Virus record (IMG/VR): IMGVR_UViG_3300048883_000431
Location: 32,001-96,000 of that record
Strand: one strand, 5' to 3'
DNA length: 64,000 nucleotides
From: a virus
Shown here: piece after piece, positions 7,589 through 42,608 of the stretch
Numbering within the stretch: position 1 is the first letter of the stretch
How the letters are laid out: each line of letters starts with the position of its first letter
Notes under the pieces: generated by a model
What the model was told of the DNA's origin: nothing
The model's database searches: none
The model's input: only the letters and a program-made list of their open reading frames with translations
Position numbers and translations under genes: made by a program

Positions 7589-8416
7589 ATGGCGAGAGCA
7601 GCGCTCCCTTACGTTGGTGGTGGCGGGGACTTCACGCCCCACCACTCCATCAGCATTCCCGCAGCGATTTACCTCAAGAAGCACAACCTGACTGCGGCCT
7701 CCGGTAACGCCGTCCCTGACCCAGGAACCCTCAACAACAACGCTGAGTCCTCGGCCGACGCGATCCTGTTCGGATCGGTCACGGCCCTAGCCAACTCGGG
7801 GCTTATGGACGAGCCGTTTGACTACGACCTTACCGGCGCGAGCGGTACCGACGTCAACGCCTCCGCTTTGCCCGGCAACGCGACGGCGTGCATCGGCATG
7901 ACGTCCGGTGGCGTCCGACTCCGTAAGGAGCAGGACACGGTCGTATACAACTCGGACCAGTTGCGTGGTAACTTCGACGAAGACGCCACGAGTAACCTCT
8001 GGGCCATCGACTGCTCCATGCAGGAGATGAATCTCTACAACCTCGCCCTGGCGTGGGGACGAAGCGTTGCCGCCGTGGGCAGCTCGTCCATCATGCTGAT
8101 GAAGGCCGGGGACCAGGAGTTCCACTCCCTCTCCATGGTGACGAAGGCACCGCAGGCGAGCTTCGAGAGCTCGGTGGGCGCGTACCGCCGTGGCACGCGT
8201 GTCTACTCGTTCTTCAAGGTCAAGGCGTGGGCGAACGGGGAAATCCCCCACACCCGCGACGATGTCCAGTCCATCCCGGTTACGTTTATGACGTACTGCG
8301 ATGGTAACGAGAACTGGGGCGTGCTGTTCGACTCGTACCACGATTACAGCCCCTCCGGCAGCGGCCACGCAGCCCAAGCCATCGTCCCGACCATCTACAA
8401 CGATGCCGTGGCGTAA
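7589..8416 (+). CDS. major tail (tube) protein
   Basis: IGMTSGGVRL, MQEMNLYNLALAWG, IPVTFMTY tube-like pattern; strong RBS; own terminator; synteny. Confidence 0.75.
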   Translation: MARAALPYVGGGGDFTPHHSISIPAAIYLKKHNLTAASGNAVPDPGTLNNNAESSADAILFGSVTALANSGLMDEPFDYDLTGASGTDVNASALPGNATACIGMTSGGVRLRKEQDTVVYNSDQLRGNFDEDATSNLWAIDCSMQEMNLYNLALAWGRSVAAVGSSSIMLMKAGDQEFHSLSMVTKAPQASFESSVGAYRRGTRVYSFFKVKAWANGEIPHTRDDVQSIPVTFMTYCDGNENWGVLFDSYHDYSPSGSGHAAQAIVPTIYNDAVA

Positions 8417-8444
8417 GCACCGGGCTGCGTCAACACCCGAGAGG

Positions 8445-8467
8445 AGCCCAGCGAGAGCTGGGCTTTT
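8445..8467 (+). terminator. intrinsic terminator
   Basis: AGCCCAGC-GAGA-GCTGGGCT perfect 8-bp stem followed by a short T run. Confidence 0.75.
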
Positions 8468-8470
8468 CCC

Positions 8471-8500
8471 TTGCCCACCCCCTCCGTATGGTGATATACT
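8471..8500 (+). promoter_or_regulatory. sigma70-type promoter for the GT pair in the tail operon
   Basis: TTGCCC, 18 nt, TATACT with extended TG; GGAGG RBS follows. Confidence 0.55.
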
Positions 8501-8518
8501 CCCATCGGAGGCGTCTAC

Positions 8519-9649
8519 ATGGCTACTATCTTCTTTGCGAGCGACTGGCTCAAGCGTGTCCTACTTCCACCGGAGGGCACGACTTGGCACGACACACCAC
8601 AGACCGGCTACGGGAATCTCCGAAGCATGGTGCGTAAATGGGCCGACCTTCGCGGGCACACGCTTACCACCGCCCCGGAGGATGCCGACATGGAGATTCT
8701 CGTGGGCGATCCAGGAACTAAGCCTGACCCCCACATGTGGCCGTCTGCCGCCCTCACCATGTTCGAGCAGTCCAGAACCCCCGCCAAGTGGTCGCAGGCA
8801 CTGTCCGGCTGGACCTATGTCCTGCTTCCGTCGACGTGGTGCGTGTCGTGCTTCAAGGAGCAGTTCCATGAGCTAGGGTACTCGGAGGCCGCCGACCGAG
8901 TTCGGCATATACCACTCGGGTTCGTGCCTGAGAACTTCCCCTACGTCGAACGCCCGAGCCGTGACACGTGGACAATCATCGCGCAGGGGGTGGAGCTTCG
9001 GGACCGCAAGGGACTGGAGCACTTCCACGGCATCTTCTCGACTCCGGGGACGTATCCACTCCCAAACGATCTCCGAATCGTAATCAAAATCCTCCCGGTC
9101 GCGGGTGACGGTGTCGTTGTGGACCCCTACCTCTTCGAGTTGGGGAGACTTACGATTAACGCGCGAGTTCTTCCATCGGACGAGTTCCAGACGCTTCTAG
9201 GCAACTGCGACTACTCGGTCAACCCCACCGCCGGGGAGGGGTTCGGACTAATCCCCGTGGAGCACATGTCTACCGGGATGGGGGTATCCGTAACACACTG
9301 GTCGGGGGTGATGGACTATGTTAGGGATGACCTGTTCCGCCCCATTGACTTTAGTCTAGGGCAGGGGCAACTTCCTGGGGCGATGGTGGCAGTCCCCCAC
9401 ATCGACTCGGTCTACGAGAACATCATGTGGAGCTACGAGAACCAGGACGAGGCGCGTCGTCGCGGACGCGTAGGGAGCGACTACGTCAGGGACAACTGGA
9501 CGGTCGAGAGAATGTACACCGCCCTGGATGATCTCGTCACGGACATGCTGCCAATTGACCGGGAGATGAACACACGACGTCGCCCGGTAAGGCACCGCTC
9601 GGACGACGGACTTACTATCCACGAGGACGGAAGGGTTGAGCGCGTATGA
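8519..9649 (+). CDS. GT4-like glycosyltransferase
   Basis: TGYG, DRKG and GEGFGLIPVEHMSTG (E-x7-E motif). Confidence 0.85.
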   Translation: MATIFFASDWLKRVLLPPEGTTWHDTPQTGYGNLRSMVRKWADLRGHTLTTAPEDADMEILVGDPGTKPDPHMWPSAALTMFEQSRTPAKWSQALSGWTYVLLPSTWCVSCFKEQFHELGYSEAADRVRHIPLGFVPENFPYVERPSRDTWTIIAQGVELRDRKGLEHFHGIFSTPGTYPLPNDLRIVIKILPVAGDGVVVDPYLFELGRLTINARVLPSDEFQTLLGNCDYSVNPTAGEGFGLIPVEHMSTGMGVSVTHWSGVMDYVRDDLFRPIDFSLGQGQLPGAMVAVPHIDSVYENIMWSYENQDEARRRGRVGSDYVRDNWTVERMYTALDDLVTDMLPIDREMNTRRRPVRHRSDDGLTIHEDGRVERV

Positions 9650-10644
9650 TCCGACTAGAGCCAGAGTACCCTGACTACGAGGTCATCGTGCCGACCTTCG
9701 AGCGCCCCAAGATGCTCGATGCTTTCCTCGGGCAGGTGCGGCACTGCAACGCCCACAAGCCCCCCAAGCGAGTCATCGTGGTGGACGACGGCTCTTCGCC
9801 GGAGACCGTCGAGAGTACCAAGCGCCTTCGGTCCAAGCACAGCGACGCGGCAATGCGTGTTGCACTCGTCCTACGCGAGGAGCAGGGTGGGTACCAGGCC
9901 GCAACGCGTGACGGACTTTCCCACGTGGAGACCAAGTACGCCGTGGTGTGCGCCGACGATGTTCGTCTGGGGCAGGAGACTAGTCCCGGCGTGTTCTCCT
10001 GCCCGTCGGACCCCAACCCATTCGTAACGCTTGTCTACTACCTGGCGGGCGCGGAGCGCGTCCGAAGCAACATACAGAATGCGGAGGAGGAGGCACGCGT
10101 CCCCTACCCGGTGGGCGTGGTTATCCCTTGGGGGGTGAAGTTGGAGACCCCAGGCACGGTGAGCGCGTCCAATCGGGAGATGTGGTCGCTAAGTGCGGGC
10201 ATCCTCCCACTGGTTACGGACCAGAAGAGTGGTTTTGGCCTCGACGCGCTTGTAGGTGTGGAGGAGCTTGCGTTCTACGAGGGGTCAGTTGGCGCGCACT
10301 ACTGCTTCGCGCTCGACATGAACTACTACCGGTCTCTCGGTGGATTAGACCCGGAGCTCGACGGTCCCAACATGTACTCATTTTGGGACTATACTCTGCG
10401 CGCGAGGAATACAGGGGTTGCGACCTACTTTACGAACCGTGCGGTCTACATGCACCGCACCCAGCCGTACACCAAGCACCGTGCGTCGCTCGCGAACACG
10501 GTTCTCCACGGCAAAACGTCCATACGAACCGGGGAGCTTCTCCTTTCCCGGTGGGAGCGCTATTCGATTGCGGGCCTCAACCGGCCGATAAACCCGCCAC
10601 ACACAGACTTCACGGGGATGATGAACAATGCCTGGAGTGGATGA
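9646..10644 (+). CDS. GT2-family glycosyltransferase
   Basis: VIVPTFERPKML, VIVVDDGS, ADD (DxD-like), LGGLD, WDYTLRAR. Confidence 0.85.
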   Translation: MIRLEPEYPDYEVIVPTFERPKMLDAFLGQVRHCNAHKPPKRVIVVDDGSSPETVESTKRLRSKHSDAAMRVALVLREEQGGYQAATRDGLSHVETKYAVVCADDVRLGQETSPGVFSCPSDPNPFVTLVYYLAGAERVRSNIQNAEEEARVPYPVGVVIPWGVKLETPGTVSASNREMWSLSAGILPLVTDQKSGFGLDALVGVEELAFYEGSVGAHYCFALDMNYYRSLGGLDPELDGPNMYSFWDYTLRARNTGVATYFTNRAVYMHRTQPYTKHRASLANTVLHGKTSIRTGELLLSRWERYSIAGLNRPINPPHTDFTGMMNNAWSG

Positions 10645-11227
10645 CAAAACGGACGCGCCGATTCTGATTGAGGACGACGTGGCGGACACCGCGCCCGTTG
10701 GCGCGAACGACGAACAGCTGGGGCCGGGGATCGACGCGGGAATGCCCACGGACGAAGAGACGGCCGCGCGCGTGCGTAACGCCGGGCTGGTGGACCTGAC
10801 GCAGTCCTTCAACGAGCGCGTGGCGAACGTCCCGCGCGAGTACGAGGTGGGCGGTAAGACCGTCTACATCCACAGCAAGCCTATAGGCGACATCATCCGC
10901 ATCGACGCCGAGGTGATCCGGCTCCAGAAACTGGTCAACACCACGGTGTCAACAGCGGAGGACAACGAGCGACTGGCGGCCGACCCCGACTACCTCGCCG
11001 AGATGTACGACCGCCTCTCCGAGCGCCAGACCCAGATCTGGAATCTCGTCCGCAAGATTATCTGCGGAATTGCCAACGGCCCCGACACGCCGAAGGTCGA
11101 CAAACTCACGCCCACAGACGCGGATCGCATGACGATGGATCAGGCTAACGAAATCATCGAGGCCTACATCCACTATAATGATATTGAGGGTCTGTTAAAA
11201 AACGTGACGGGGGCGAGGAGCTTCTAA
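10628..11227 (+). CDS. tail assembly chaperone (gpG-like)
   Basis: Upstream of the tape measure; slippery heptamer near its 3' end. Confidence 0.7.
   Translation: MPGVDDKTDAPILIEDDVADTAPVGANDEQLGPGIDAGMPTDEETAARVRNAGLVDLTQSFNERVANVPREYEVGGKTVYIHSKPIGDIIRIDAEVIRLQKLVNTTVSTAEDNERLAADPDYLAEMYDRLSERQTQIWNLVRKIICGIANGPDTPKVDKLTPTDADRMTMDQANEIIEAYIHYNDIEGLLKNVTGARSF
11197..11203 (+). promoter_or_regulatory. programmed -1 ribosomal frameshift site A AAA AAC
   Basis: tta aaa aac in frame; the -1 frame is open (KRDGGEELLSKPSPGNRKYDPSFMVTQ...) to 11523. Confidence 0.8.
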
Positions 11228-11523
11228 GCAAACCTTCGCCCGGCAACCGTAAGTACGATCCGTCGTTCATGGTGACGCAGATCGCGAACATCATGGACTG
11301 GCAGCCCTTCTCGTGGCAGACGATCCTGGATGAGTGGCCGTATGCCTCCCTCCAGCTCATCATGTCGCGTGTCGCAGAGAACGTCCGCAAGCAGAACACC
11401 AAGCCTGGTGATCCGGGGTTCACGAGCCTCGACACCAGCAAGTCCGCGTCGCCCGGACAGGTGATGGCTGACCTTGAGGAGCGTGCGATGGTCGCGAATC
11501 CCAACAGCATGGACGAGGGGTAA
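11203..11523 (+). CDS. frameshifted C-terminal extension of the tail chaperone (gpT-like)
   Basis: -1 frame relative to 10628; ends 3 nt before the tape measure ATG. Confidence 0.7.
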   Translation, partial: RDGGEELLSKPSPGNRKYDPSFMVTQIANIMDWQPFSWQTILDEWPYASLQLIMSRVAENVRKQNTKPGDPGFTSLDTSKSASPGQVMADLEERAMVANPNSMDEG

Positions 11524-11526
11524 GCC

Positions 11527-14500
11527 ATGGCGCTAGTCCGCATTGCCATTCAGGCCCACTCGACCGGCTTCGACAAGGCCGCCCGGGACGTCAACCGGGC
11601 GGTCACTGATGCTGAGAACGCTCTCACACAGCACGCTCAGGGTGCCCTTGCGAACCTGGAGCGCCAGGCCGACAATGCGCTCATCGCGGTTCGCGGCGTC
11701 ACCGCCAAAATCTCCCAGGAAGGCAAGATCGAGGACCTCCCCAGGGCCTTTGAAGAGGCCACGAGGACGTTCAAGGACTTCGCGGAAGCGAGCCGTGGCG
11801 GTGTCCAGAACCTGAAGCTGATGAAGCAGACGATCAACGGCATCACCTTCGAGTTCGATGCCATGGCGAATGCTGCCGAGAACGTCGGACGCACGTTCAC
11901 CGCCGCCGGTCAGAAGGCCGTCGACCAGGCACGCGACCAGCTTGAGCTCGAAGAGAAGATCATCCGGGCCAGGGAGCGCTCGGCGCAGGCGTTCACCGCC
12001 TCACGCGCGCAGATCGACCGGGCGGGCGGCGTCCTTGCCAGTGACATGGGCCAGCAGGCGGCCATCAACGATCCCGCCGTCCAGGCCGCGCGTATCGCCT
12101 CGGGACAGGCGCGTGCGCGTCAGACCACCGCAGCGGATGCGCTCGCCGTCGGTCAAGGAACCATCGGCAGGGGGGAGCACGTCGCGGATGTACGGAAGGA
12201 GATTCGGGTACAGACCGAGCTCAACCGGAAGATGGCGAAGGCCCTCGCTCTCCAGGAGCAGCTCAACGACGCGTTCAACTTCGGGAACCGCACCGCCGCG
12301 ACCCGCGCAAAGACCAAGGCGCTCAACAAGCAGAACGTCGAGCTACGTGAAGGACAGGATCGTGTGGTGGCGCTTCGGAAGGCGGTCGTCAGCCTCGACC
12401 GTGTGCTGGAGGAGGGGGACACCGAGGTAGACGCCCTCACCCACAGCATGGAGTTCCTTACGGCCGAGTCGGGAAAGGCCGCCAAGAAGCTGGCGTCGCT
12501 CCAGATCGCACTGGACCGTCTGAATGTAAAGGGCGGGGGGTCGAAGGTAGACCGGCAGGCGCTGAAGGAGAAGATCGAAGAGCAGCAGGCTCTCCTCCGG
12601 TCGATTGAGAAGGTGCGTCGGACTGGACTGGGCGGGAGCATTCCGGGGCCTGGCGCGCGTCCCTTCGGCGACCTTGAGTCCAAGAGCCTCCGGGAGCTCC
12701 AGGTCGAGATCGACAAGCTCGACAAGAAGAACCAGAAGGCCGCCGATAGCACGCAGGAACTCAGGACTGAGATTCACGAGCTTCGCGGGGAGGAGCTGGA
12801 GAAGGCCGACGAGGCCGTTCGTGTGCTGGACCGTCGGCTGACGGACGTGGCCGAGACGATTGAGACCAAGGACGTCACCGCGCTCAGGAAGCTCGAACTC
12901 GCACTCGAACGGTCGTCCAAGGAATTCGACGATCTCAGGATCAAGGCTGACAAGGCCGAGGACAAGCTGCGCATCGCGCTCGAAGCGGGTATCGAGGAGC
13001 CCGCGCGCCAGGCGGAGAAGGAACTCAAGGACCTGGAGAAGCAGCTCGACAGGGTGACGACTGCGGGGGAGCGCACCACGCGTGAGATGCGCGAGCTTGC
13101 GTTGTCGACCATCCGCTCCGGCGGTGACGTATCGAACATCGACGCGCCCGGCTTTCGGAAGGAGGGAACGGGCGGTGGGCGTGGGGGCGGTGGGCGTGCC
13201 CAGCGTGGTACCGTAGACTTCACCGACGTCAAGAGGGAGGTGGATAAGAAGAACCCCTTCGGCGGGTTCTCCCGATTCGGTTCCAAGGTCCTCATCATCA
13301 CCGGGCTGGTGTACACCGCGCTCGGTCTCGCGCAGGCCGCCTTCCGTGGGTTCACGTTCGCGGCTAACTCCGTGGCTAAGGCGGAACGATTCAGCGACAC
13401 CCTGAACACCTACATCAATCTTTCGGAGGAGTCCGGGACCGGACTCGAATCCCTCGGGCGCGTGTTCAACGCACTGGGCGGTACCGTCGACCGCTTCTCG
13501 GTAGTCACGGCGGCCGCGAAGGCGCGCATGTCGGGACTGGCCGAGGAGACCATCCCGCAGATCGCGCAGGCGGCGCGTATCCTGTCGCGCGCGGTGGGTG
13601 TTGAGGTGACCGAGGCGTTTGACCGCCTGTCACGTGGTATCGCGAAGCAGGAAGTTGAGATTCTCGACGAACTCGGGATCATCGTGCGCCTGAACGACGC
13701 CCTGGAGAAGTGGGCGTTGAAGAACGGACGCACCGTGGAGAGCCTGAGCGCGCAGGAGCGACAGGTCGCCTTCGCGAACGAGGTGCTTGGTGTTCTTGCC
13801 GCACGGTACGCCCAGATCGGCACGCAGATGACCCGGACGTCCGACAAGCTGGACATCTTCAAGGCGCGCTGGGCCGACCTCAGCATCACGATGTCCCACG
13901 GACTGCGTGGCTGGGCCGCCGTTGGGCTTGGGCTCGGGAACTTCGCCGCGAACATCCTTGAGGGCGTCTTCCCGGCCACGCTGAAGATGAAGACCCGGAT
14001 GGAGCTACTGGATTCGGTTGTCCAGAACTTCGGGACGAGTCTAGAGGGTGTGATGGGGCGTAGGGGTACCATCGCGGACGCCATCGCCCAGATCGAGCTG
14101 ATGTCCGCCGGTATTCGTGCGGCGTCTCCTGGGAGCCTCCTCTATCAGGAGCGTCTTGACGAGATGAACCGTGTGCTCGGTAAGATGGTGGTCACGTTCC
14201 CCGAGCTCAACACCGTGATCCGAAGCACGAACTTCCTGCTCAAGGGAAGCACCGACGAGCTACGCAACTCCTTGATCGTCCTTCAGTCCGAGTTCGAGGT
14301 TCTGAGGAAGGCGTCGAATGAGAAGCGCGGCAAGGCGTTCGCCTCCCTGCAGCTTGAGATCGTAATTCTTACCGAGCAGCTCCAGGGCGCAATCGAGAAA
14401 AGAGACGATCTTTTCTTATCAGCCCCATTTGAGTTCAAGGCCATGGCGAAGGCCCGCAACGAGGTAGCCCTCCTGACGAACGAGCTCTCGTCGCTCCAGG

Positions 14501-17500
14501 GGATGTTCGGGGGCGGGAACCTCACTGGCGCGAAGCTGGGTCCCGTTGGCGAGGCGGCGCTCACCAACCTGACTCAGATTTTCCAGGGACTCGACGTGGG
14601 CACACGTCTCGGTGGGGTCGGGGGTGTGGACAGCGACCAGCGGAAGCGCGTGGCGAACCGAGTCGAGCAGTTGATGAGCTCGCTGGGTCCATCGGTGGAG
14701 CAGGGCATCCTGACGGAAAGAGCGGCGGAAGGTATTCGCGGGCAGTCCGTGGCCTTCATCTCGGGGGATCGAAACGAGGCGATGCGCGCCGTCAGCCAGA
14801 TGCTCGACATCCTCTCAGAGGGCGTGGAGAACGCGGCCCCCGACGCGACCAAGGCGTTCATGTTCGACCTCTTCAATGACCTCCGGGAGTCGGCCCTCCG
14901 TGCATTCGTCGACGCCGGGGGAAGAACCGGGGGAAGCGGCCTCGACCCGACCAAGACCCTGAAGGAGATCATCGAGTCGCGGCGTCCCGGCGGGCAGCGT
15001 TCCTTTGACATTCCCATACCCTTCACCGAGGCGTCGCGGCGCGGGCGCGCTGCGCTCAGTGGCAGTATCGTGCCCCTGGGCGGCATCAAGGCCGCGACGG
15101 CGCAGGCAACGCTGGCCGAGACGCTGGCGAAAATGGTCATCGAGGGCGAGGGTATCGCCAAGTCCAACACGGAACTACAGGGACTCACGGCGGCGTTCAT
15201 CAAGGGTGAGCGTGCGAGGCTCGCCCAAGAAATCCTCGACATCAGGGAGCTCACGCAGCTCAAGGTCACTGCCAAGGAGCAGGCCATTGAGGAAGCGCGC
15301 ATCACGGAGCTCATCAGGAAGGCCACCACGAAGTCTAAGCAGACCGAGCTCGACATCTCCGAGACGACCAACAGTATCATCCGCAACCGGGTGAGCACGT
15401 TCGCGCAGTCCGCTGGTAACCGTCCGGTGGGTAAGCTGGGTAAGGTCGTCGAGGGACTCCAAGCGGATGTCCTGACTCGCGAGGGCGACCTGAGCGCCCA
15501 AGTCCTCGCCGCACAGCAGAAGGAAGTCGAGGCACGCCTCGCCTCGGAGTCCGCCACAGCACGTAAGGCGGTCGCCGACTTCCAGGCCACCATCTCGACC
15601 ACCGTCAAGGGGTTCACCGAGGAGCTGTCCGACCTACGCGCGGCGATCCGCGAGAGCGACAACGAGACCGGCGAGACGGTCACCGCCCTCTCCGACGGCA
15701 TCACGGAGATGACGGAACTTCAGACGCGTGCGGCTGCTAAGGCCAAGGAGCTGGAGACGCTGATCACCAACGACCTCTCCAAACTGATGACCGGCGACAT
15801 CCCGGCCGCCGTGAAGGCGATGCTAACGACCCTGTTCGCCGTCACCGACACCGTGGGCGACGATGTGCGTGCGCGTGAGTCCCGGTTCCCGGCTCTGTTC
15901 CGCGCTGGCAGCACCGGCTCCGAATCGTCCCTGCGGAACCTCGGCGACGCGCGTACGCGCACGGCCGACAAGCAGGGCGACTTCGCACGACTGTTCAATC
16001 TCACCGGCTTGGGCGACATCTCGGGAATCTCGGGACTGTCCGCCGGGCGGCGTCAGCTCGAAACGCAGGCCAGTGGATTCGAGAACGCGGCGGGGCCGCT
16101 GCGCAAGGTCGCAGACCTGGGCGAGGCTCGTGCGGCGAAGGTCCTGGACCTAATGAACCAGGCGACCAGGGCCGGTAGGGGACAGGGCGACGAGTTCATG
16201 GAGCTCGCCAACATCTACAATTCCCTAGAGGAAGAGTCCGAAAAGCTCCGAGAGGAGTTGGCAGCCCTACAGGTGCAGGCGGACGCGACGCGCGTCACGG
16301 GAACCGACCTTCTGGCGGATTCGGCAACGCGACTTGCGGGAGCCCTCGGAACGAACGCAGCCCGCGCAGCGCGGGAAGCATCCCGTAGCCTGGAGGCACT
16401 CACCGGCACCCCGGAGAAGATGGACCGTCTCCGCGCGATCATGGGCGGACGGGCAGCGGACGTCTCCGCGAACCTCGGCGGACGTGGGGATGAGTTTGCG
16501 TTCGGGTCGCCCGCCGAGGTCGACCGCCGCCGCCTTACCCTGGAGACCCAGGTCGAGCAGCTCACGAAGCGGCGCGACGCACTCATCACGAGCACGCGGA
16601 CTGCCAAGGAAGGCGGCGCGTCGAGCGAGTCTCTGAGCGGCGTACGCGCCCAGACACACGAGTTGTCGCGCCAAATCCTGACCCGTCAGGTGATCTTGGA
16701 CGACCTTCTCGTCCAGTCGGACGCTATCCGCGCTTCCATCGTCGCTGGTGACTTCGCCAAGCTCGACATGGACATCCAGAAGGTCGTGGAGTCGGGGAGC
16801 GTCGAGACCATTACCCGCAACATGGGCTTCCTCAACGATGTCCTCGACGAGATGAACGACTTGACCGATGACGAGCGTGGCGGGATCAAGAAGCTGATCG
16901 ACGATCTCGATGGCGCGAAGAAGGCTGCACAGAACGCACGCGAACTCGCCGACGAACTCAAGCGCATCAAGAGTGTGTCGTCCGCCCGACAGGGCGCAAT
17001 ACGCGCCGTGGGCAGTGTGGCTGGCGGGAGGGCCGGTAGTGTGCTTGGCTCGATTGCGGGCATCGTGGGGGGCGTTACCTCGTTCTCCAGCATCGCGGCT
17101 ACGCGCACGGCGTCCCACGAGAGTAACCTCGCCGAGCGGGACGCCGGAACAATCAACCAGGGAACCTTCACCAACAACGAGTCCGCCATCAACACTGTCG
17201 CCACCATGGGCAAGATCGCGGCCGGGGCGGAGCTTGTCGGGCAGGGCATCAGCATCGCCACCACGGCCTGGTCGATGTTCAACGCGCGTGCTGAGGCAGC
17301 CAAGCAGAAGGTGCGTGAGATTCAGGAAGCCGCCAACGCGATGGGTGACGCCATCGCAGGTGGCATCGCGGCGGGCTTTGATGAGGGAGCGCAGTCGTTC
17401 GACGACTTCATGCGCAACTTCCTCCTGAACGAGTTTAGAACGAACCTCGCGGAGACTGTGCTGGAGACGTCAGGGATACGCGCGTTCACCGACGACCTGG

Positions 17501-18195
17501 CGGCCACCAAGACCCTCCTCGCGGATACGACCGACAGGGTTGACGAAATCCTTGTGCAAAACAAGGGACTCAACAAGTCCATCACCCCGGACGTCCTGAC
17601 TAACCTCAGCAAACTGGACCCGGCACTACTGCAGAACGCTAAGAACCTCACGGCACTCCAACGCCTAACCATCCTCAAGAACGCGGGGGCCGTACTACCA
17701 CAGAATGAGTTCGGGGATACGATCCCCCAGGGGACGACGGAATTCCTACAGACCCTCGGAAACGAGTTGGCCACGCGTGCGAAGCTCGGTGGGCAGCTCC
17801 AGGACGCGGCCGGGGAGGTCGAGGGGTTCAGCGAGGCCATCGCGGGTGTCCAGCCGATCTTCGACGGGTTCCGGGAGGCGCTGGGACTGAGCACTGGCGC
17901 GGTGAAGGGCGTGTCCGAGATCGCGACGTCCACGTTCCGCGCTGTCACCGAGCCACAGGCGAACCTGTTGCTCAGTGCCACCATCGAGATGCGCGACCTG
18001 CAGGTCCAGATCGAGTTCAACACACGGCGCACTGCGGAGGTCCTCACACACGACATCCTCGGCGCGCTGTTGGCGAACGGGTTCAACGCGGGCGCAAGAG
18101 AGCCAGAGGACGTTCCGACAACCCCCGCAAACCTGAAGCTCGGTGACCTGAAGCAGGGGGCCGAGCAGGTCCAGAACGGTCAGGGAGTCCTCTGA
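11527..18195 (+). CDS. tape measure protein (2222 aa)
   Basis: Very long Ala/Glu-rich helical ORF after the chaperone; GIAKQEVEILDELGI TMP motif; hydrophobic segments. Confidence 0.92.
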   Translation: MALVRIAIQAHSTGFDKAARDVNRAVTDAENALTQHAQGALANLERQADNALIAVRGVTAKISQEGKIEDLPRAFEEATRTFKDFAEASRGGVQNLKLMKQTINGITFEFDAMANAAENVGRTFTAAGQKAVDQARDQLELEEKIIRARERSAQAFTASRAQIDRAGGVLASDMGQQAAINDPAVQAARIASGQARARQTTAADALAVGQGTIGRGEHVADVRKEIRVQTELNRKMAKALALQEQLNDAFNFGNRTAATRAKTKALNKQNVELREGQDRVVALRKAVVSLDRVLEEGDTEVDALTHSMEFLTAESGKAAKKLASLQIALDRLNVKGGGSKVDRQALKEKIEEQQALLRSIEKVRRTGLGGSIPGPGARPFGDLESKSLRELQVEIDKLDKKNQKAADSTQELRTEIHELRGEELEKADEAVRVLDRRLTDVAETIETKDVTALRKLELALERSSKEFDDLRIKADKAEDKLRIALEAGIEEPARQAEKELKDLEKQLDRVTTAGERTTREMRELALSTIRSGGDVSNIDAPGFRKEGTGGGRGGGGRAQRGTVDFTDVKREVDKKNPFGGFSRFGSKVLIITGLVYTALGLAQAAFRGFTFAANSVAKAERFSDTLNTYINLSEESGTGLESLGRVFNALGGTVDRFSVVTAAAKARMSGLAEETIPQIAQAARILSRAVGVEVTEAFDRLSRGIAKQEVEILDELGIIVRLNDALEKWALKNGRTVESLSAQERQVAFANEVLGVLAARYAQIGTQMTRTSDKLDIFKARWADLSITMSHGLRGWAAVGLGLGNFAANILEGVFPATLKMKTRMELLDSVVQNFGTSLEGVMGRRGTIADAIAQIELMSAGIRAASPGSLLYQERLDEMNRVLGKMVVTFPELNTVIRSTNFLLKGSTDELRNSLIVLQSEFEVLRKASNEKRGKAFASLQLEIVILTEQLQGAIEKRDDLFLSAPFEFKAMAKARNEVALLTNELSSLQGMFGGGNLTGAKLGPVGEAALTNLTQIFQGLDVGTRLGGVGGVDSDQRKRVANRVEQLMSSLGPSVEQGILTERAAEGIRGQSVAFISGDRNEAMRAVSQMLDILSEGVENAAPDATKAFMFDLFNDLRESALRAFVDAGGRTGGSGLDPTKTLKEIIESRRPGGQRSFDIPIPFTEASRRGRAALSGSIVPLGGIKAATAQATLAETLAKMVIEGEGIAKSNTELQGLTAAFIKGERARLAQEILDIRELTQLKVTAKEQAIEEARITELIRKATTKSKQTELDISETTNSIIRNRVSTFAQSAGNRPVGKLGKVVEGLQADVLTREGDLSAQVLAAQQKEVEARLASESATARKAVADFQATISTTVKGFTEELSDLRAAIRESDNETGETVTALSDGITEMTELQTRAAAKAKELETLITNDLSKLMTGDIPAAVKAMLTTLFAVTDTVGDDVRARESRFPALFRAGSTGSESSLRNLGDARTRTADKQGDFARLFNLTGLGDISGISGLSAGRRQLETQASGFENAAGPLRKVADLGEARAAKVLDLMNQATRAGRGQGDEFMELANIYNSLEEESEKLREELAALQVQADATRVTGTDLLADSATRLAGALGTNAARAAREASRSLEALTGTPEKMDRLRAIMGGRAADVSANLGGRGDEFAFGSPAEVDRRRLTLETQVEQLTKRRDALITSTRTAKEGGASSESLSGVRAQTHELSRQILTRQVILDDLLVQSDAIRASIVAGDFAKLDMDIQKVVESGSVETITRNMGFLNDVLDEMNDLTDDERGGIKKLIDDLDGAKKAAQNARELADELKRIKSVSSARQGAIRAVGSVAGGRAGSVLGSIAGIVGGVTSFSSIAATRTASHESNLAERDAGTINQGTFTNNESAINTVATMGKIAAGAELVGQGISIATTAWSMFNARAEAAKQKVREIQEAANAMGDAIAGGIAAGFDEGAQSFDDFMRNFLLNEFRTNLAETVLETSGIRAFTDDLAATKTLLADTTDRVDEILVQNKGLNKSITPDVLTNLSKLDPALLQNAKNLTALQRLTILKNAGAVLPQNEFGDTIPQGTTEFLQTLGNELATRAKLGGQLQDAAGEVEGFSEAIAGVQPIFDGFREALGLSTGAVKGVSEIATSTFRAVTEPQANLLLSATIEMRDLQVQIEFNTRRTAEVLTHDILGALLANGFNAGAREPEDVPTTPANLKLGDLKQGAEQVQNGQGVL

Positions 18196-18216
18196 ACTCC
18201 GCCGTCTAACCTGGAG

Positions 18217-18245
18217 TTCGCAAAACGGAGCGCGCGTGCTATAAT
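18217..18245 (+). promoter_or_regulatory. promoter for tail-tip genes
   Basis: TTCGCA, 17 nt, TATAAT with extended TG; preceded by GAACTCC/GGAGTTC hairpin (18194-18219). Confidence 0.6.
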
Positions 18246-18302
18246 AGATGGGGGACAGTCGCCAGTGGCCTTGCCCGAAACACCTTGTATGGGAGTTGTC
18301 CA

Positions 18303-18389
18303 ATGGCGAGTCCAGAGGAACGCGACGTTGTCGTAAACCAGATCACGGTGCCTACGTTCACCGCAGATGTATGGAATGAGTTGTCGTAA
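18303..18389 (+). CDS. 28-aa micro-ORF MASPEERDVVVNQITVPTFTADVWNELS
   Basis: GGGAG RBS; its TAA overlaps the ATG of the next gene (TAATG). Confidence 0.45.
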   Translation: MASPEERDVVVNQITVPTFTADVWNELS

Positions 18390-37328: not shown

Positions 37329-37950
37329 TCGACGCCTCCTTGATGACCACCCCGTACCCGGTCTGGTTTGGGGGGACGTGCTTCTCCAGTCTGTAGGGGT
37401 GGTCCGACGCCACCAGCTCTTCCCAGAATATGGACACGTTTGGCTCGCCGTATGCGTTGGGTGGCTCGCCCCCGGTCTCCACGTCGTGGATGAAGATGAC
37501 CGCTCTGTCCGCCGACAGCGCTGCGTAATCCGCAAAGTCCCGCCTCACACCGTGCAGGCTGTGGTCCCCGTCTACCACAACCGCGTCGGGGGCGTGGCCT
37601 ACCGCGCTGATTATGGACCGAAGCATGAGCTTGACTTCCCCGTGGTGTGAGTCCCCCTCCAGGGGGTAGTAGTCGACCCCGAGACGGTCGCACACCTTGT
37701 GCATCTTTGAGTATACCATACCGCGAGACAGTCCGGGTAGGTCAATCGAGACGAAAACCTCCGGCTGCATCTTCACGAGACGGTAGGCTAGCCCGCACAT
37801 GCGGGTCCCTATCTCCAGTATAAACCTGGGGGTCCCCCCAAGCTCTCGGGACGTGACCCTCTCGAAAATTTCCAACTCGGCTTGACTTGTGGCCTGGTGC
37901 TCCTCCGAGGCCCATCGCAGCAGAGGAGGATCGTTCGCATCGTCACGCAT
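37318..37950 (-). CDS. class I SAM methyltransferase (Methyltransf_24-like)
   Basis: ILEIGTRMCG, VSIDLP, VVVDGDHS, IFIHDV. Confidence 0.85.
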   Translation of the reverse strand: MRDDANDPPLLRWASEEHQATSQAELEIFERVTSRELGGTPRFILEIGTRMCGLAYRLVKMQPEVFVSIDLPGLSRGMVYSKMHKVCDRLGVDYYPLEGDSHHGEVKLMLRSIISAVGHAPDAVVVDGDHSLHGVRRDFADYAALSADRAVIFIHDVETGGEPPNAYGEPNVSIFWEELVASDHPYRLEKHVPPNQTGYGVVIKEASSEG

Positions 37951-38647
37951 GTGGCTCCCCCTCCAGGGTGTACCCGAACTCCTCTATCTCATGGACGCAC
38001 GCGCGTGCCACCACGTGTACGTCGGCCCGCGACAGAACCTCGTTGGGGGGCCGAGCGTCCATCCGAACTCCCCCGCCGATGTGGGGTACCCCCACGGTGA
38101 GTCCAAGCCCAAGCCTGTCACTCAGACGCCCCAGCTCGCCGTGTAGGTCCTCGTACCGCATCACGTGGTCCACCAGTATCGTATTGTCCCACGTGTACAT
38201 GCTCCAGTTTGACTCCCGCCCGAGGAAGAGTCCCCCCTGGATTGCCTCGGACAGGGTTGGGTCGCCGGTTACGCCGGGGTTCCCGTCCCACCCCATGCCG
38301 CGCTCATGGTAATACTGTGAGACGATCCTGTCCCAGGGATTGCGCTCCGTGCAGAACGTGTAGTAGTCACGCCACTCCCGTGGGAAGACGTCCCGTATTT
38401 TGACGGCCGTCATGTGGGGCGGCCACAGCACGTCGGCGTGTGTCCAGGGCCTACTGGACGGAAACAGTGGCCCAAAGCAGTTCTGCGGGCCGCGCGGGCC
38501 GTCCTCACTTCCCCTGCCGTCCCCCAGAGCTAGTGGGGTGATGATGTCCTCGTCCCCGCATACCGAGGATAGTGCCCACTCGATGCTACTTCCCGCCACC
38601 TTAGCGCACTTCACGTATATAAATCTGTGTCTGTGGGAGATTATCAC
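37943..38647 (-). CDS. sulfotransferase (Sulfotransfer_2-like), copy 3
   Basis: MIISHRHRFIYVKCAKVAGSS (5'-PSB), RNPWDRIVSQY (3'-PB), VMRYEDL. Confidence 0.85.
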   Translation of the reverse strand: MIISHRHRFIYVKCAKVAGSSIEWALSSVCGDEDIITPLALGDGRGSEDGPRGPQNCFGPLFPSSRPWTHADVLWPPHMTAVKIRDVFPREWRDYYTFCTERNPWDRIVSQYYHERGMGWDGNPGVTGDPTLSEAIQGGLFLGRESNWSMYTWDNTILVDHVMRYEDLHGELGRLSDRLGLGLTVGVPHIGGGVRMDARPPNEVLSRADVHVVARACVHEIEEFGYTLEGEPHA

Positions 38648-39345
38648 TGGGCAATCCCATCGTGGAGCGTGTAGCCGAACTCCCGGATTATGGAGGCGGA
38701 GTCTTTGGCGATGATCTCGGCCTGTTTAGAGGTAAGGACCAGTGACGGGTGCCTCCTGTCACGTCGGAACTCCGCATGGAGCCTCGGGAGTACCGGGACC
38801 GGCACCCCCAGCCTACCGCAGAAGTCCCGAAGCTCCGCATCGTAGTTCTCGTACCGCATCACGTGGTCCACTATGATGTTGTCGTCCGAGTCCGTGTAGA
38901 ATCTCCTGTTGGTGACCTGCACACCGAGTAGCCCCTGGTCTAGGCACTCCGAGAGGGTGGGTCGGTCGACGTCGTCGCCCGTGAACTTCTTGGAGTAGTA
39001 TGCCTCGTAGTAGTGCGAGATGATTCGGTCCCACGGGTTGCGCTCCGTGACGAACGTGTAGTAGTCCTCCCATTCCTTGGGAAACTCCGCCATGATCGCG
39101 GAGGGCTCCGTGTGGGCGACCCACCTGGTGTCCGCCCTGGTGGGCGGGCGGTTCGGGGGGTACAGGGGGTAGTAGCAGTTCTGCGCACCACGGTTTCCCT
39201 CGACCTCCCACCGTGGGTCCGGGTACCCGTACGGGGTGACGATGTCGTCGGGACCGCACAGTGACGAGAGTCCGAATTCGAGGCTCGTTGCGCCGACATT
39301 GACGCACTTGACATGGATGAAGCGGTGCTTGTGGGAAATTATCAA
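38644..39345 (-). CDS. sulfotransferase, copy 2 (PSB Lys replaced by Asn)
   Basis: FIHVKCVNVGATS, RNPWDRIISHY, MRYENY. Confidence 0.8.
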   Translation of the reverse strand: MIISHKHRFIHVKCVNVGATSLEFGLSSLCGPDDIVTPYGYPDPRWEVEGNRGAQNCYYPLYPPNRPPTRADTRWVAHTEPSAIMAEFPKEWEDYYTFVTERNPWDRIISHYYEAYYSKKFTGDDVDRPTLSECLDQGLLGVQVTNRRFYTDSDDNIIVDHVMRYENYDAELRDFCGRLGVPVPVLPRLHAEFRRDRRHPSLVLTSKQAEIIAKDSASIIREFGYTLHDGIAQ

Positions 39346-40013
39346 CGGGCAACCCCGTCGTGTAGTGTGTAGCCGAACTCACGTATGATGCTCGCGCTGT
39401 CCCGGGACACAATGTCTGCGTCAGCCTGTGTGAGAACCTCGGAGGGGTGCCGCCTGTCGCGTCTGAACTTCGCGTGCAGCCTCGGCAACGTCGGTACCTC
39501 GACCCCCAGCCGGTCGCACAGCGCTGCCAGCTCCGCATCGTAGTTCTCGTACCGCATCACGTGGTCCACTATGATGTTGTCGTCCGAGTCCGTGTAGAAT
39601 CTCCTGTTGGTGACCCGCACACCGAGTAGCCCCTGGTCTAGGCACTCCGAGAGGGTGGGTCGGTCGACGTCGTCGTGGTGCTGGTAGTATGCCCCGTAGT
39701 AGTGCGAGATGATGCGGTCCCACGGGTTGCGCTCCGTGACGAACGTGTAGTAGTCCTCCCATTCCTTGGGAAACTCCGCCATGATCTCGGGGGGCTCCGT
39801 GTGGGGGACCCACCTGGTGTCCGCCCTGGTGGGCGGGCGGTTCGGGGGGTACAGGGGGTAGTAGCAGTTCTGCGCACGGTTTCCCCCGACCTCCCACCGT
39901 GGGGTGATGATGTCGTCGGGACCGCACAGTGACGAGAGTCCGAATTCGAGGCTCGTTGCACCGACCTTGGCACACTTGACGTGGATGAACCGATGCTTGT
40001 GGGATATAATCAC
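39342..40013 (-). CDS. sulfotransferase, copy 1
   Basis: GTG start overlapping upstream TGA; FIHVKCAKVGATS, RNPWDRIISHY. Confidence 0.85.
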   Translation of the reverse strand: MIISHKHRFIHVKCAKVGATSLEFGLSSLCGPDDIITPRWEVGGNRAQNCYYPLYPPNRPPTRADTRWVPHTEPPEIMAEFPKEWEDYYTFVTERNPWDRIISHYYGAYYQHHDDVDRPTLSECLDQGLLGVRVTNRRFYTDSDDNIIVDHVMRYENYDAELAALCDRLGVEVPTLPRLHAKFRRDRRHPSEVLTQADADIVSRDSASIIREFGYTLHDGVAR

Positions 40014-41056
40014 TCCGCGTGCTCCTTGAACGGGATGATCAGACTGCGGGAGTCCCTTGTATCCCTCGGTCCCTCGCCCAGCGGCGCGGCAAGGACCCAA
40101 GACAGGATGTCATCGTCGGAGACCAGCCTATCGGTGCAGTGGAGGTTCAGGGAATCGTCGTGCTGTAGGGTGAGGAAGTTCAGGAGTCCCTCACGCCCCT
40201 CGGCAGTGTCGGGGTAACCGTTCCTGGCGACCGCGAGAGTCACGTTGTTGCGGTCCCACAGGGTACACCCCAGGTGGGTCCACGTCTCGGCACTGACCCG
40301 AACGTCGGCGGCGTCGAGGGCGGCAATCGCCCTGAATATGTCGTTCTTCTGGTCGACGTGGGTCACCAGCCCCGGGTGGAGGGCCCCCGCAGCCCTTGCC
40401 GCGACCGTCCGCGCGTAATACTGTGGGTCGCTCAAGTCCATCACTCCGCCCCCCAGCCACACGACGGCCCACCCTGCCCCGAGGAGTCCCTCCGTGATGT
40501 CCAGCCACGCGTGCCCGTCAAGGTGTGTGCGTCCGAAGGGGGCAAGGACGGCGAGGGGGCGTCCGCAAGCCCACGACTGGAACTCGCGGACGTACCCTTC
40601 GTACTCCGAAGGGACGTGCAGTCCGGTGTGGGCATAGGGGACCACCACACGCCTTGAATCCCTAAGACGTCGGTTCCACGCGCGCAGGGCATACGGAACC
40701 ACGGTCAGGGGGTCGTCCGTCCCTGACGGCGGGGCGAAGTCGTCGGGCATTCCGAGTGACTTGACCACCATGCCAGCCTCGGAGGGGTCGATGCAGACAA
40801 CATGACTGAGTCTGGGGTCGCATGACAGTAGCCTCTCGCTGGCCTTCCGGCGTGTTCGACCAGAAACGGACTCGTCGTACACGAGAACCACGCCCGCCTC
40901 CACGTCGCACACCCTTGCGACGTCCAGGAGATCGGGCACACGCCTAACGATGAACCGTATGACGTCCCCGATCCCGGTACCCGGGTAATCCCATAGGACG
41001 CCCGAAGGGAGACTCTTGGGGGAGCGGGAGACTGCGGGCCCCATGCTAGGCTCCAA
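40010..41056 (-). CDS. divergent GT9-like glycosyltransferase
   Basis: GTGIGDVIRF, LAVLAPFG, GWAVVWLGG, AIAALDAADVRVSAET. Confidence 0.55.
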   Translation of the reverse strand: MEPSMGPAVSRSPKSLPSGVLWDYPGTGIGDVIRFIVRRVPDLLDVARVCDVEAGVVLVYDESVSGRTRRKASERLLSCDPRLSHVVCIDPSEAGMVVKSLGMPDDFAPPSGTDDPLTVVPYALRAWNRRLRDSRRVVVPYAHTGLHVPSEYEGYVREFQSWACGRPLAVLAPFGRTHLDGHAWLDITEGLLGAGWAVVWLGGGVMDLSDPQYYARTVAARAAGALHPGLVTHVDQKNDIFRAIAALDAADVRVSAETWTHLGCTLWDRNNVTLAVARNGYPDTAEGREGLLNFLTLQHDDSLNLHCTDRLVSDDDILSWVLAAPLGEGPRDTRDSRSLIIPFKEHAE

Positions 41057-42023: not shown

Positions 42024-42608
42024 TCACTCCTCCAGCATCCTCTGTAACAGTTCGACTGAGGCGTCGTGCATCCGCTTCACGGAGGCATAGGAGAGTCCGA
42101 GGCGTCGGCTTGCGCCCCGTATGGTCTCGCCCTCCAAGTATACCATATTCAGGATGTCGGGGTAAGGGTAACATATGCGCTCGGACACCGCAACGAAGTC
42201 ACGCGCCTCCGCGTCCGCTTCGGCCTCCGGGGCTACGAACATGCCGGAGGTGTCGATAGCGTCCGTCGAGACGTACTCGTGGATCGGGTTGTCCGTGAGA
42301 ACACGGTGCCACGACACCGCGACGTTGCCGTTCTTGTGCTTGGCGATGCAGCGGATCATCCCGAGGTAGATAGCACGTCCGGCGTAGGTGGAGAACTTGG
42401 CGCGCTCCGGGTCGTAGCTCTGTGTGGCCCGCGCGAGGGCCTCGTACCCGGACTGCTCAACGTCTTCGTAGAACTCGGAGAAGGCAAGGGAGTACCCTCC
42501 ACCGTCGAACTTGGGGCGTATCTTGCCTAGAATGTGGGGGACAAGTTTCATGTTGTCCTCCACCACCTGGCGCTGACCGTCCGTTAGTGGCACAACTGGT
42601 TTAGCCAT
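42024..42608 (-). CDS. sigma-70 family RNA polymerase sigma factor (regions 2 and 4)
   Basis: VEDNMKLV, EDVEQSGYEALARATQSYDPERAKFSTYA, C-terminal HTH. Confidence 0.85.
   Translation of the reverse strand: MAKPVVPLTDGQRQVVEDNMKLVPHILGKIRPKFDGGGYSLAFSEFYEDVEQSGYEALARATQSYDPERAKFSTYAGRAIYLGMIRCIAKHKNGNVAVSWHRVLTDNPIHEYVSTDAIDTSGMFVAPEAEADAEARDFVAVSERICYPYPDILNMVYLEGETIRGASRRLGLSYASVKRMHDASVELLQRMLEE

Follow-up and report, generated by a model that had tools for sequence, protein, structure and literature searches.

A putative virion-glycosylation gene pair between the tail tube and tail assembly chaperone genes of an uncultured siphovirus

Two glycosyltransferase genes interrupt the run from the tail tube gene to the tail assembly chaperone gene in an uncultured siphovirus with a 112-kb genome and a long tail, which raises the question of what these enzymes modify and why they are encoded at this particular place. 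The window analyzed here, a 64,000-nt stretch (positions 32,001 to 96,000) of IMG/VR record IMGVR_UViG_3300048883_000431, carries a GT4-type gene and a GT2 gene between the tube and chaperone genes, as described in the initial annotation. That annotation regarded tube, chaperone, and tape measure genes as almost always contiguous in siphoviruses; the "almost always" needs softening, since cultured phages provide exceptions, namely, Corndog (gp50 to gp53 and gp56) and KellEzio (gp28 and gp29). Our main reading, to which we assign a probability of roughly 55%, is that the two enzymes add sugars to virion proteins in the cytoplasm late in infection, that the tube is the leading candidate acceptor, and that the pair forms a conserved component of the tail module.

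The product of the first gene (7589 to 8416, plus strand, 275 aa) had no direct sequence match in Pfam, PHROG, or PDB. A profile of its homologues picked up relatives of 170 to 220 aa, and 6 of the 46 aligned sequences of this family, remote homologues of the product, matched PF25681 (Phage_TTP_17), with a best E value of 1.1e-8. The AlphaFold model built on the homologue alignment reached a pLDDT of 74 and a pTM of 0.71, compared with a pLDDT of only 32 for the single-sequence prediction. Foldseek matched the alignment-based model to the solved tubes of Douge, Bxb1, Mycofy1, HFTV1, YSD1, Chi, and lambda (E values of 1.5e-7 and weaker), as well as to "major tail protein" models in BFVD (1.8e-10). 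Considering the modeled beta-sandwich fold and the place of the gene upstream of the chaperone and tape measure genes, the product is identified as the siphovirus tail tube (major tail) protein. The Ser/Ala/Asn-rich N-terminal region previously attributed to it corresponds to residues 35 to 97, an insert of ∼65 aa with low model confidence, in which the fraction of small and polar residues is 0.63 to 0.73 versus about 0.45 in the core and which is missing from the shorter remote homologues. The C-terminal tail is flexible as well, with Ser, Pro, and Gly. The N-X-S/T sites of the insert were not conserved across homologues, and tube and capsid had no common terminal motif.

The GT4-type gene (8519 to 9649, plus strand, 376 aa) is preceded by a GGAGG ribosome-binding site 7 nt upstream, and its product matched phrog_2170 at 7.6e-21. 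Its own scores against the Pfam GT1/GT4 families were 18 bits, below the cutoffs (26 bits), while its homologues carry PF13692, and the EX7E motif (E240/E248) is invariant across the family. The family profile found PDB entry 3oy2 as the best solved structure (4.8e-7, over the C-terminal domain). Judged from its C-terminal Glycos_transf_1-type domain together with EX7E, the protein is assigned as a CAZy GT4-type retaining glycosyltransferase of predicted GT-B fold. The next gene (9646 to 10644, plus strand, 332 aa) encodes a GT2 glycosyltransferase (GT-A fold) with DDGS and ADD motifs, which matched PF00535 at 1.8e-11 (44.7 bits versus a cutoff of 23.3), with no NCBIfam equivalog reaching its cutoff. 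The two frames are coupled by an ATGA overlap, in agreement with the coupling proposed before. Neither protein contains a 19-residue window with a hydropathy above 1.5 (the top value in GT2 is 0.85), so both were read as cytoplasmic proteins that are apparently soluble and catalytically intact. A GtrB-type bactoprenol glucosyltransferase was considered for GT2 and rejected, because C-terminal transmembrane helices are lacking and the match to phrog_841 ("GtrB-like O-antigen conversion," 1e-6) is confined to residues 13 to 104.

Downstream, the short form of the chaperone (10628 to 11227, plus strand, 199 aa, G-like) had no family match in Pfam, PHROG, or NCBIfam and is recognized from its place directly upstream of the tape measure gene and from its frameshift anatomy. 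The slippery heptamer A_AAA_AAC (11197 to 11203, plus strand) would allow a −1 frameshift into a frame that is open from 11188 to 11523, giving a long form of 299 aa (10628 to 11523). This frame ends 3 nt ahead of the tape measure gene, whose ATG is at 11527 and which was identified by its size and by its place behind the frameshifted chaperone (11527 to 18195, plus strand, 2,222 aa). With overlapping frames, a −1 heptamer, and a tape measure gene immediately behind, the arrangement is that of a putative lambda G/GT-type chaperone pair. The last 17 nt of GT2, which stops at 10644, fall within the chaperone frame, bearing out the overlap noted in the initial annotation. Because all of these genes share one strand, GT2 and the chaperone gene overlap, and no terminator lies between them, the pair, the chaperone gene, and the tape measure gene very probably belong to one transcript; the earlier suggestion that chaperone and tape measure expression runs through the glycosyltransferase transcript is thus supported.

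A terminator behind the tube gene and an extended −10 promoter ahead of the pair had also been proposed, and candidate elements for both were found. The first is a terminator-like hairpin (8441 to 8468, plus strand) with a GC-rich stem and a GAGA loop, followed by TTTTCC; its folding energy of −28.9 kcal/mol (z = −3.2) was reached by none of 200 shuffled sequences. The U-tract comprises just 4 U, and a simple terminator scanner did not list this hairpin, which is probably a partial terminator or attenuator behind an abundant tube gene. The second is a promoter-like site (8471 to 8500, plus strand) of the form TTGCCC-18-TATACT with an extended −10 TG (TGATATACT at 8492 to 8500). The corresponding motif class, TGNTATAMT, occurs six times in the window against 0.6 expected (a tenfold enrichment; none of 100 shuffles reached six), and all copies are co-oriented with the local genes. 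Reading the site as a promoter is nevertheless not secure, given the short U-tract of the hairpin and the two sigma factors that the phage brings in addition to those of its host.

Homologues of the GT4 enzyme with 48 to 57% identity were about as numerous as close homologues of the tube. Genes of close relatives were linked through equal contig sizes, which is an indirect link: a GT4 homologue and a GT2 homologue (47% identity) lie on 117,857-bp contigs, the size of the contig of the closest tube homologue, and another GT4 homologue lies on a 7,891-bp contig, matching in size that of a second tube homologue. For one tube relative (54% identical, 105,703-bp contig), no GT4 or GT2 homologue was listed with that contig size, and this relative may lack the pair. 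A metagenome scan with the GT4 alignment yielded nine loci, one of which (L005, from a distant metagenomic phage) also had a tube homologue. There, the order is tube, GT4, methyltransferase, frameshifted chaperone, and tape measure, with a gap of 15 nt between tube and GT4. The two tubes are about 16% identical (hhalign probability of 97.8%, HMM E value of 4.5e-23), while the GT4 orthologue aligns over 313 aa that span both domains, at 30% identity (E = 6e-30). The chaperone of L005 has the same A_AAA_AAC heptamer at the same place, its tape measure protein matches PF10145, and its methyltransferase fusion is unrelated to GT2. The tube of L005 has 172 aa and no Ser/Ala/Asn-rich insert, yet GT4 is adjacent, so the insert does not tie the enzyme to the tube. 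Other searches were negative: tube queries in the viral, metagenome, and genome contig collections, GT4 queries in the viral and genome contig collections, and two remote tube homologues in the viral contig collection. Cultured phages gave no match either, whether to the region by megablast or to the tube, a remote homologue of it, or GT2 by tblastn.

Results thus indicate that the pair is a conserved part of the tail gene module of this lineage. The initial annotation had noted that close relatives lacking the pair would point to a simple moron; as far as contig sizes and L005 allow a judgment, relatives carry it. A simple or recent moron was rejected given that no terminator follows GT2, that GT2 overlaps the chaperone gene, and that homologues occur in relatives and in L005. 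Like lambdoid morons, the pair breaks into an otherwise conserved gene order, and a promoter-like site immediately precedes it. However, such morons have their own promoter and terminator, whereas here a downstream terminator is lacking, an essential gene is overlapped, relatives have the pair, a distant phage keeps its GT4 gene in the corresponding position, and there is no sign of lysogeny.

From the overlaps, motifs, and gene order described above, we infer the following pattern and timing of expression. The hairpin at the end of the tube gene would probably reduce read-through, and a promoter of the recurrent extended −10 class would restart transcription behind it. One transcript could then yield both transferases, the frameshifted chaperone, and the tape measure protein at a late stage of infection and in the compartment of tail assembly, the cytoplasm. 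The enzymes would most likely transfer sugars from nucleotide-sugar donors onto a virion protein, for which a flexible surface segment of the tube, e.g., the C-terminal tail or the 35 to 97 insert, is a candidate acceptor site. The pair probably works with many other sugar-modifying genes flanking the head, neck, and tail-tip genes, including those for an epimerase, methyltransferases, a pyruvyl transferase, a double GT9 enzyme, and sulfotransferases. A more specific version, in which the tail module of a deep uncultured siphovirus lineage, probably with Gram-negative hosts, includes a tube-dedicated GT4 as an ancestral and fixed element that starts a methylated, sulfated, or pyruvylated tail glycan coat in the present phage, is put forward only tentatively.

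The initial annotation took the location of the pair as the strongest positional evidence for a virion target. This is overstated: the Corndog transferase genes lie inside the structural operon beside the capsid gene, yet their products are reported to modify both capsid and tail tube (PMC11600133, citing Freeman 2023), so position does not define the acceptor and is weak evidence of the target. Coupling of tube glycosylation to tail assembly, which the annotation also proposed, we retain only as conjecture. It is accordingly conceivable, though on balance unlikely, that the pair belongs to a virion-glycosylation pathway whose acceptor is not the tube but the capsid, a decoration protein, fibers, or several of these, or that it only extends a glycan begun by another enzyme, its insertion site being merely tolerated and inherited. 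Apart from Corndog, this would fit the three separate blocks of sugar genes around the head, tail, and tail-tip genes and the lack of a tube-specific sequon. When virion and non-virion proteins were compared, no di- or tripeptide was clearly enriched; the best dipeptide candidate, Ser-Gly, had a z score of 3.2 that was not significant after multiple-testing correction, and SGS, TGS, DGY, SD, and STA showed no enrichment in virion proteins. Set against a non-tube acceptor is the retention of GT4 directly after the tube across a deep split in which the second gene differs, which exceeds the expectation for a randomly tolerated site, and none of the other sugar genes of the phage is a paralogue of GT4 or GT2.

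We regard it as still less probable that the enzymes modify the host envelope (e.g., LPS or a surface polysaccharide) during infection, which could block superinfection or the sticking of progeny to debris, with the virion not being the target. Many phage GT2 and GtrB-like enzymes act in this way, the partial similarity of GT2 to phrog_841 points in the same direction, GT9 heptosyltransferase-like domains of the kind typical for LPS core synthesis are encoded in the genome, and a promoter of its own gives the pair a moron-like appearance. GtrB-type enzymes, however, are membrane proteins, and no membrane segment was detected in the pair or in 11 other sugar-gene products checked; moreover, the pair has no terminator behind it, overlaps an essential tail gene, is conserved in relatives, and lies next to the tube gene. 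Lysogenic conversion is also unlikely, because the ∼60 window and genome proteins scanned included no integrase; this, together with the phage's own PolA, DnaB, clamp, and two sigma factors, fits a lytic lifestyle. Glycosylation of phage DNA or a small molecule, for anti-restriction hypermodification or another metabolic role, is very improbable: DNA-modifying phage glycosyltransferases are well known (reviewed in work cited by PMC12619734) and two DNA methylases show that this phage invests in DNA modification, but a non-exhaustive scan of its proteins found no hydroxymethylase, thymidylate-synthase-like, or other base-hypermodification gene, the pair lies in the tail operon rather than among replication genes, and similarity to it in the phage collection was limited to transferases of Arthrobacter and Microcystis phages.

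Virion glycosylation with the tube as leading candidate has parallels in mycobacteriophages, in which the capsids and tail tubes of Che8, Corndog, and Myrna are reported to be glycosylated by phage-encoded transferases (Freeman et al. 2023, Cell Host Microbe 31:1216, as cited by PMC11600133, PMC12363180, and PMC12619734). As in those systems (Che8 gp108 to gp110, Corndog gp35 to gp38, and Myrna), glycosyltransferases are encoded by the phage along with methyltransferases, and, as in Corndog, they lie within the virion structural operon; the present pair may hence be a variant of mycobacteriophage-type virion glycosylation. The differences are considerable. Beyond the superfamily level there is no homology to the enzymes of Che8 (gp108 to gp110) and Corndog (gp36 to gp38), none being found by tblastn, and the genes here separate the tube gene from the chaperone gene, whereas those of the mycobacteriophages lie next to the capsid gene or in the right arm. 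Furthermore, the surrounding set of sugar genes is much larger, with sulfotransferases, a pyruvyl transferase, and GT9 domains, and whereas capsid and tube subunits are proven targets in mycobacteriophages, the targets here are candidates. To our knowledge, glycosylation of phage particles has so far been demonstrated only in a few mycobacteriophages.

In a tblastn search of 50,697 phage records, GT4 matched only Arthrobacter and Microcystis phages, and GT2 matched none. Arthrobacter phage KellEzio and its relatives also have a GT4-type gene in a siphovirus tail module: in KellEzio, gp28 lies between the tail terminator gene (gp27) and gp29 and gp30, ahead of the frameshifted chaperones and the tape measure gene, and its donor-binding C-terminal domain is similar to that of GT4 (25% identity, tblastn E value of 4e-7, hhalign probability of 95.7%). 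It differs in that the alignment covers the C-terminal half only and that the gene comes before, not after, the presumed tube gene. KellEzio gp30 was also tried as a member of the tube family studied here, and no similarity was found. Chlorovirus B736L (PDB entry 3oy2) resembles GT4 in being a virus-encoded, soluble GT-B enzyme, but it comes from a eukaryotic giant virus, and only the donor-binding domain is similar. The capsid protein of chloroviruses is glycosylated by cytoplasmic enzymes that these viruses encode themselves. Among cultured phages, the capsid found its best relatives in Microcystis phage Mvi-JY20 (30% identity), then in T5-like phages (23%), and in no others, making it by sequence a distantly T5-like capsid; no tube or GT4 homologue was found within the examined stretch of the Mvi-JY20 genome. 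The endolysin, of the GH108 plus PG_binding_3 type, suggests a Gram-negative host.

If this phage and its relatives sugar-coat their tails, the trait would reach an unrelated lineage that is environmental (probably marine) and likely infects Gram-negative hosts, and the stable tube-GT4 gene pair would serve as a usable genomic marker for such systems. Should the tentative ancestral tube-GT4 reading also hold, virion glycosylation would not be an actinophage peculiarity, and tail assembly and tube glycosylation would be coregulated from one transcript. In mycobacteriophages, virion glycosylation blunts antibody recognition, which raises the question of what use a glycan coat would be to a phage that does not encounter immune defenses of an animal kind. 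Possible roles include protection from proteases, grazing, or defense sensors that recognize the tube, as well as control of adsorption.

A canonical terminator plus TGCTATAAT cassette likewise follows the capsid module, which lies immediately to the left of the window, and opens another block of sugar genes. Terminator-promoter cassettes behind the capsid and tube genes would offer a simple, testable model for how the ratios of these proteins are set.

Every part of the arrangement described in the initial annotation for this segment of the tail module (a tail tube gene, a hairpin, a promoter-like site, coupled GT4 and GT2 glycosyltransferase genes and an overlap with the tail assembly chaperone) was borne out. 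The interval inspected, between the stop of the tube gene (7589-8416) and the next ATG (8519), contained on the + strand a hairpin at 8441-8468 (GC-rich stem and GAGA loop, then TTTTCC; -28.9 kcal/mol, z -3.2), a promoter-like site between the hairpin and GT4 (TTGCCC, 18 nt, TATACT with an upstream TG), and GGAGG 7 nt 5' of the GT4 ATG. The GT4 (8519-9649) and GT2 (9646-10644) genes overlap in ATGA, and the chaperone ORF (10628-11227) begins 17 nt ahead of the GT2 stop. This early start is supported by the third-position G+C of its first 38 codons (about 76%, counted by eye), because real genes here show the same level; G+C is ~62% across the whole window. Also on the + strand are a slippery heptamer, A_AAA_AAC, at 11197-11203, a -1 frame that opens at 11188 and ends at 11523, and the tape measure ATG at 11527. 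Judged from sequence, 10628-11527 has the layout of the classical G/GT chaperone arrangement.

The window contains six copies of the motif TGNTATAMT where 0.6 would be expected, a count reached in 0 of 100 shuffles. Two copies are on the + strand (8492 and 18237) and four on the - strand (37718, 42145, 43344, and 47284), each sharing the orientation of the genes around it, and most of them precede a gene start by 15-20 nt or by about 100 nt; short leaders are typical. This co-oriented recurrence elsewhere in the genome strengthens the promoter call before GT4, and TGNTATAMT is probably the main promoter class of the phage. One more copy of the motif lies left of the window, about 770-830 bases before its start, at L002:17170-17232 (genome 31170-31232; L002 is a stretch of the same virus record). 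There, TGCTATAAT comes after a canonical intrinsic terminator with a GC stem, a TTCG loop, and seven T, and the two elements lie between the capsid and 123-aa genes on one side and the first sugar-gene block on the other. Since terminator-promoter cassettes of the same kind come after the capsid module and after the tube gene, transcription units seem to be ended after each abundant subunit gene and restarted with a TGNTATAMT-type promoter.

As no direct family match was obtained for 7589-8416, the name "major tail protein" was tested separately. Six close homologues (53-67% identity) were found, and their profile retrieved 47 proteins from 1.84 billion representatives, most of them 170-220 aa long and matching tube positions of about 98-250. 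Pfam PF25681 (Phage_TTP_17) was matched by 6 of 46 aligned tube-family sequences (best 1.1e-8), and the tube profile gave a weak PDB match to the phage Chi tail tube (0.014). An AlphaFold model built with the 46-sequence alignment had a pLDDT of 74 and a pTM of 0.71 (pLDDT only 32 without the alignment). The best PDB matches of this model in Foldseek were the tail tube chains of mycobacteriophages Douge, Bxb1, and Mycofy1, followed by HFTV1, YSD1, Chi, and lambda V (E from 1.5e-7 across the PDB set), while its BFVD matches were "major tail protein" entries (from 1.8e-10). Given the Phage_TTP_17 matches among homologues and the resemblance of the model to solved tubes, 7589-8416 is assigned, on its predicted fold, as the tail tube protein. 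Its residues 35-97, with pLDDT below 50, have a high content of Ser, Thr, Asn, Gly, Ala, Pro, and Asp, vary among close homologues, and are absent from the shorter remote ones.

Regarding the enzymes, 8519-9649 matched PHROG glycosyltransferase family 2170 (7.6e-21) and the Pfam GT1/GT4 families only below their cut-offs; the EX7E motif (E240, E248) is invariant in the seven-member GT4 family, the best solved relative being the chlorovirus transferase B736L (4.8e-7). The product of 9646-10644 scored above the Pfam GT2 cut-off and has DDGS and ADD motifs. No membrane-spanning hydrophobic stretch was found in either protein.

Whether the pair is a recent insert was approached by two routes, namely, database homologues and a metagenome scan with the GT4 alignment. 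GT4 homologues at 48-57% identity were about as numerous as close tube homologues; one comes from a contig of 117,857 bp, the exact size listed for the contig of tube homologue P0004 (67% identity), and another from a contig of 7,891 bp, the exact size listed for that of tube homologue P0007 (55%). The sole GT2 homologue (47%) is likewise on a 117,857-bp contig. A 7.9-kb contig carrying both would place tube and GT4 within a few kilobases of each other. No GT4 or GT2 homologue was listed with the contig size of a further tube homologue (105,703 bp), and this relative may lack the pair or have a more diverged one. The metagenome scan yielded nine loci, one of which had a tail module, at 9429-16159 of the distant 27-kb phage contig Ga0180008_1000632 (L005). 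There, an SU10-type adaptor is followed in turn by an HK97 gp10-like protein, a 172-aa protein, GT4, a 426-aa protein, a 161-aa ORF, a 1051-aa tape measure (PF10145), and a Dit-like protein. The 172-aa protein is a member of the window's tube family (HMM E 4.5e-23; hhalign 97.8%), and the L005 GT4 aligns with the window GT4 over 313 residues and both domains (30% identity, E 6e-30); it starts 15 nt past the tube stop and has GGAGG, with no hairpin or promoter between the two genes. The 161-aa ORF has the same heptamer, A_AAA_AAC, as the window, and its -1 frame ends just before the tape measure ATG. Gene anatomy and conservation are what the analysis shows, the tube-GT4 order being kept across a divergence that leaves the two tubes with only about 16% identity. 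The gene after GT4 is not shared: GT2 in the window is unrelated to the 426-aa protein of L005, which combines an N-terminal methyltransferase domain with an unassigned 300-aa C-terminal part. A simple moron missing from close relatives, the outcome set against the glycosylation reading in the initial annotation, is the opposite of what was seen, given this shared order and the GT4 and GT2 homologues on contigs sized like those of tube homologues.

The premise that tube, chaperone, and tape measure genes are almost always contiguous has exceptions, as the order is already interrupted in deposited genomes. In mycobacteriophage Corndog, four genes on the reverse strand separate tube from chaperone, and an HNH gene precedes the tape measure. 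In Arthrobacter phage KellEzio, a GT4-type gene is placed between the tail terminator and the gene that precedes the chaperones; transferases inside tail modules are therefore already present in such genomes. The present system appears to function like the Che8/Corndog kind, yet to be no member of it by descent, because tblastn with GT4 or GT2 did not find the Che8/Corndog enzymes. It differs from that kind in the conserved tube-GT4 adjacency, the very large surrounding sugar-gene set, the Tara Oceans mesopelagic origin of one homologue, a GH108/PG_binding_3 endolysin (L003:8417-9196 in genome coordinates, - strand, left of the window) with GT9 domains elsewhere in the phage, and a distant lineage. 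Among cultured phages, the nearest relatives of the capsid protein (L002:15370-16758, + strand, left of the window) are that of Microcystis phage Mvi-JY20 (30% identity) and those of T5-like phages of Vibrio and Klebsiella (23%); at 112 kb, the genome is also of T5-like size. Endolysins of this type are associated with phages of Gram-negative hosts, which, along with the GT9 domains, is a hint of a Gram-negative, proteobacterial host.

To our knowledge, the only role shown experimentally for phage transferases among structural genes is capsid/tail tube glycosylation in mycobacteriophages. We infer the acceptor, the sugars, and the timing: GT4 and GT2 would glycosylate a virion protein in the cytoplasm while particles assemble, and virion protein glycosylation of some kind, on the tube or another acceptor, is given a probability of roughly 0.55. 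This reading is favored because the enzymes are soluble, on the late strand, conserved beside the tube, and overlapping an essential tail gene, because a scan of roughly 60 proteins from the window and the rest of the genome showed no integrase, and because of the mycobacteriophage precedent. In three articles citing Freeman et al. 2023 (PMC11600133, PMC12363180, PMC12619734), mycobacteriophage capsid and tail tube subunits are described as glycosylated, with glycans at the C-termini of both proteins (PMC12619734). The tube subunit would be the leading candidate acceptor, held only tentatively. The earlier proposal of tail-tube glycosylation is partly supported, by the conserved tube-GT4 adjacency and the overlap with the chaperone, but position does not identify the acceptor in the only system for which it is known: Corndog has both tube and capsid reported as modified, with its three transferase genes just upstream of the capsid gene. 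The L005 tube is without the Ser/Ala/Asn-rich insert, the N-X-S/T sites in the window tube's insert are not conserved, and a comparison of di- and tripeptides in virion versus non-virion proteins gave no convincing over-representation. By analogy with the mycobacteriophage proteins, a site in the flexible C-terminal tail, which has SPSGSG in the window tube and TSTPPKTT in that of L005, is no less likely than one in the 35-97 insert.

A gene survey of the window (bases 32001-96000 of a 112,229-bp IMG/VR virus record, 92% complete by CheckV) and its flanks broadly agreed with the view that many sugar genes are interwoven with the virion module. Left of the window, the + strand encodes a PfkB sugar kinase and DNA polymerase A, a probable large terminase (called from size and position, with no family match), and portal, S78 protease, and HK97-type capsid protein, then the 123-aa protein and a methyltransferase. 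Within it, the + strand continues with an NDP-sugar epimerase, two methyltransferases, pyruvyl transferase, and two unassigned proteins, then a head-tail adaptor (phrog_442), two small neck or tail genes before the tube region, and, after the pair and chaperone, the 2222-aa tape measure, tail-tip genes, and a double GT9 enzyme. On the - strand, methyltransferase and GT-like genes alternate, with three tandem sulfotransferase-like paralogues at 37943-40100, two of them 83% identical and the third 46-50% identical to these (blastp); Pfam support was weak in two (E 2e-4 to 2e-3) and absent in the third. The PfkB-family kinase (L002:15-1082, + strand; genome 14015-15082) is encoded in the early or middle region and may help the phage to supply its own nucleotide sugars, e.g., through a heptose pathway for the GT9 enzymes. 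The phage also encodes its own replication genes and two - strand sigma factors (42024-42608 and 49522-50568), one of them short and containing regions 2 and 4, the other 348 aa long and containing regions 2, 3, and 4, either of which could drive the promoter class seen in late genes. The untranslated 190-nt gap 3' of the tape measure gene (18196-18388) holds the region's strongest sigma-70-like site (TTCGCA, 17 nt, TATAAT with TG), about 145 nt upstream of the next long ORF.
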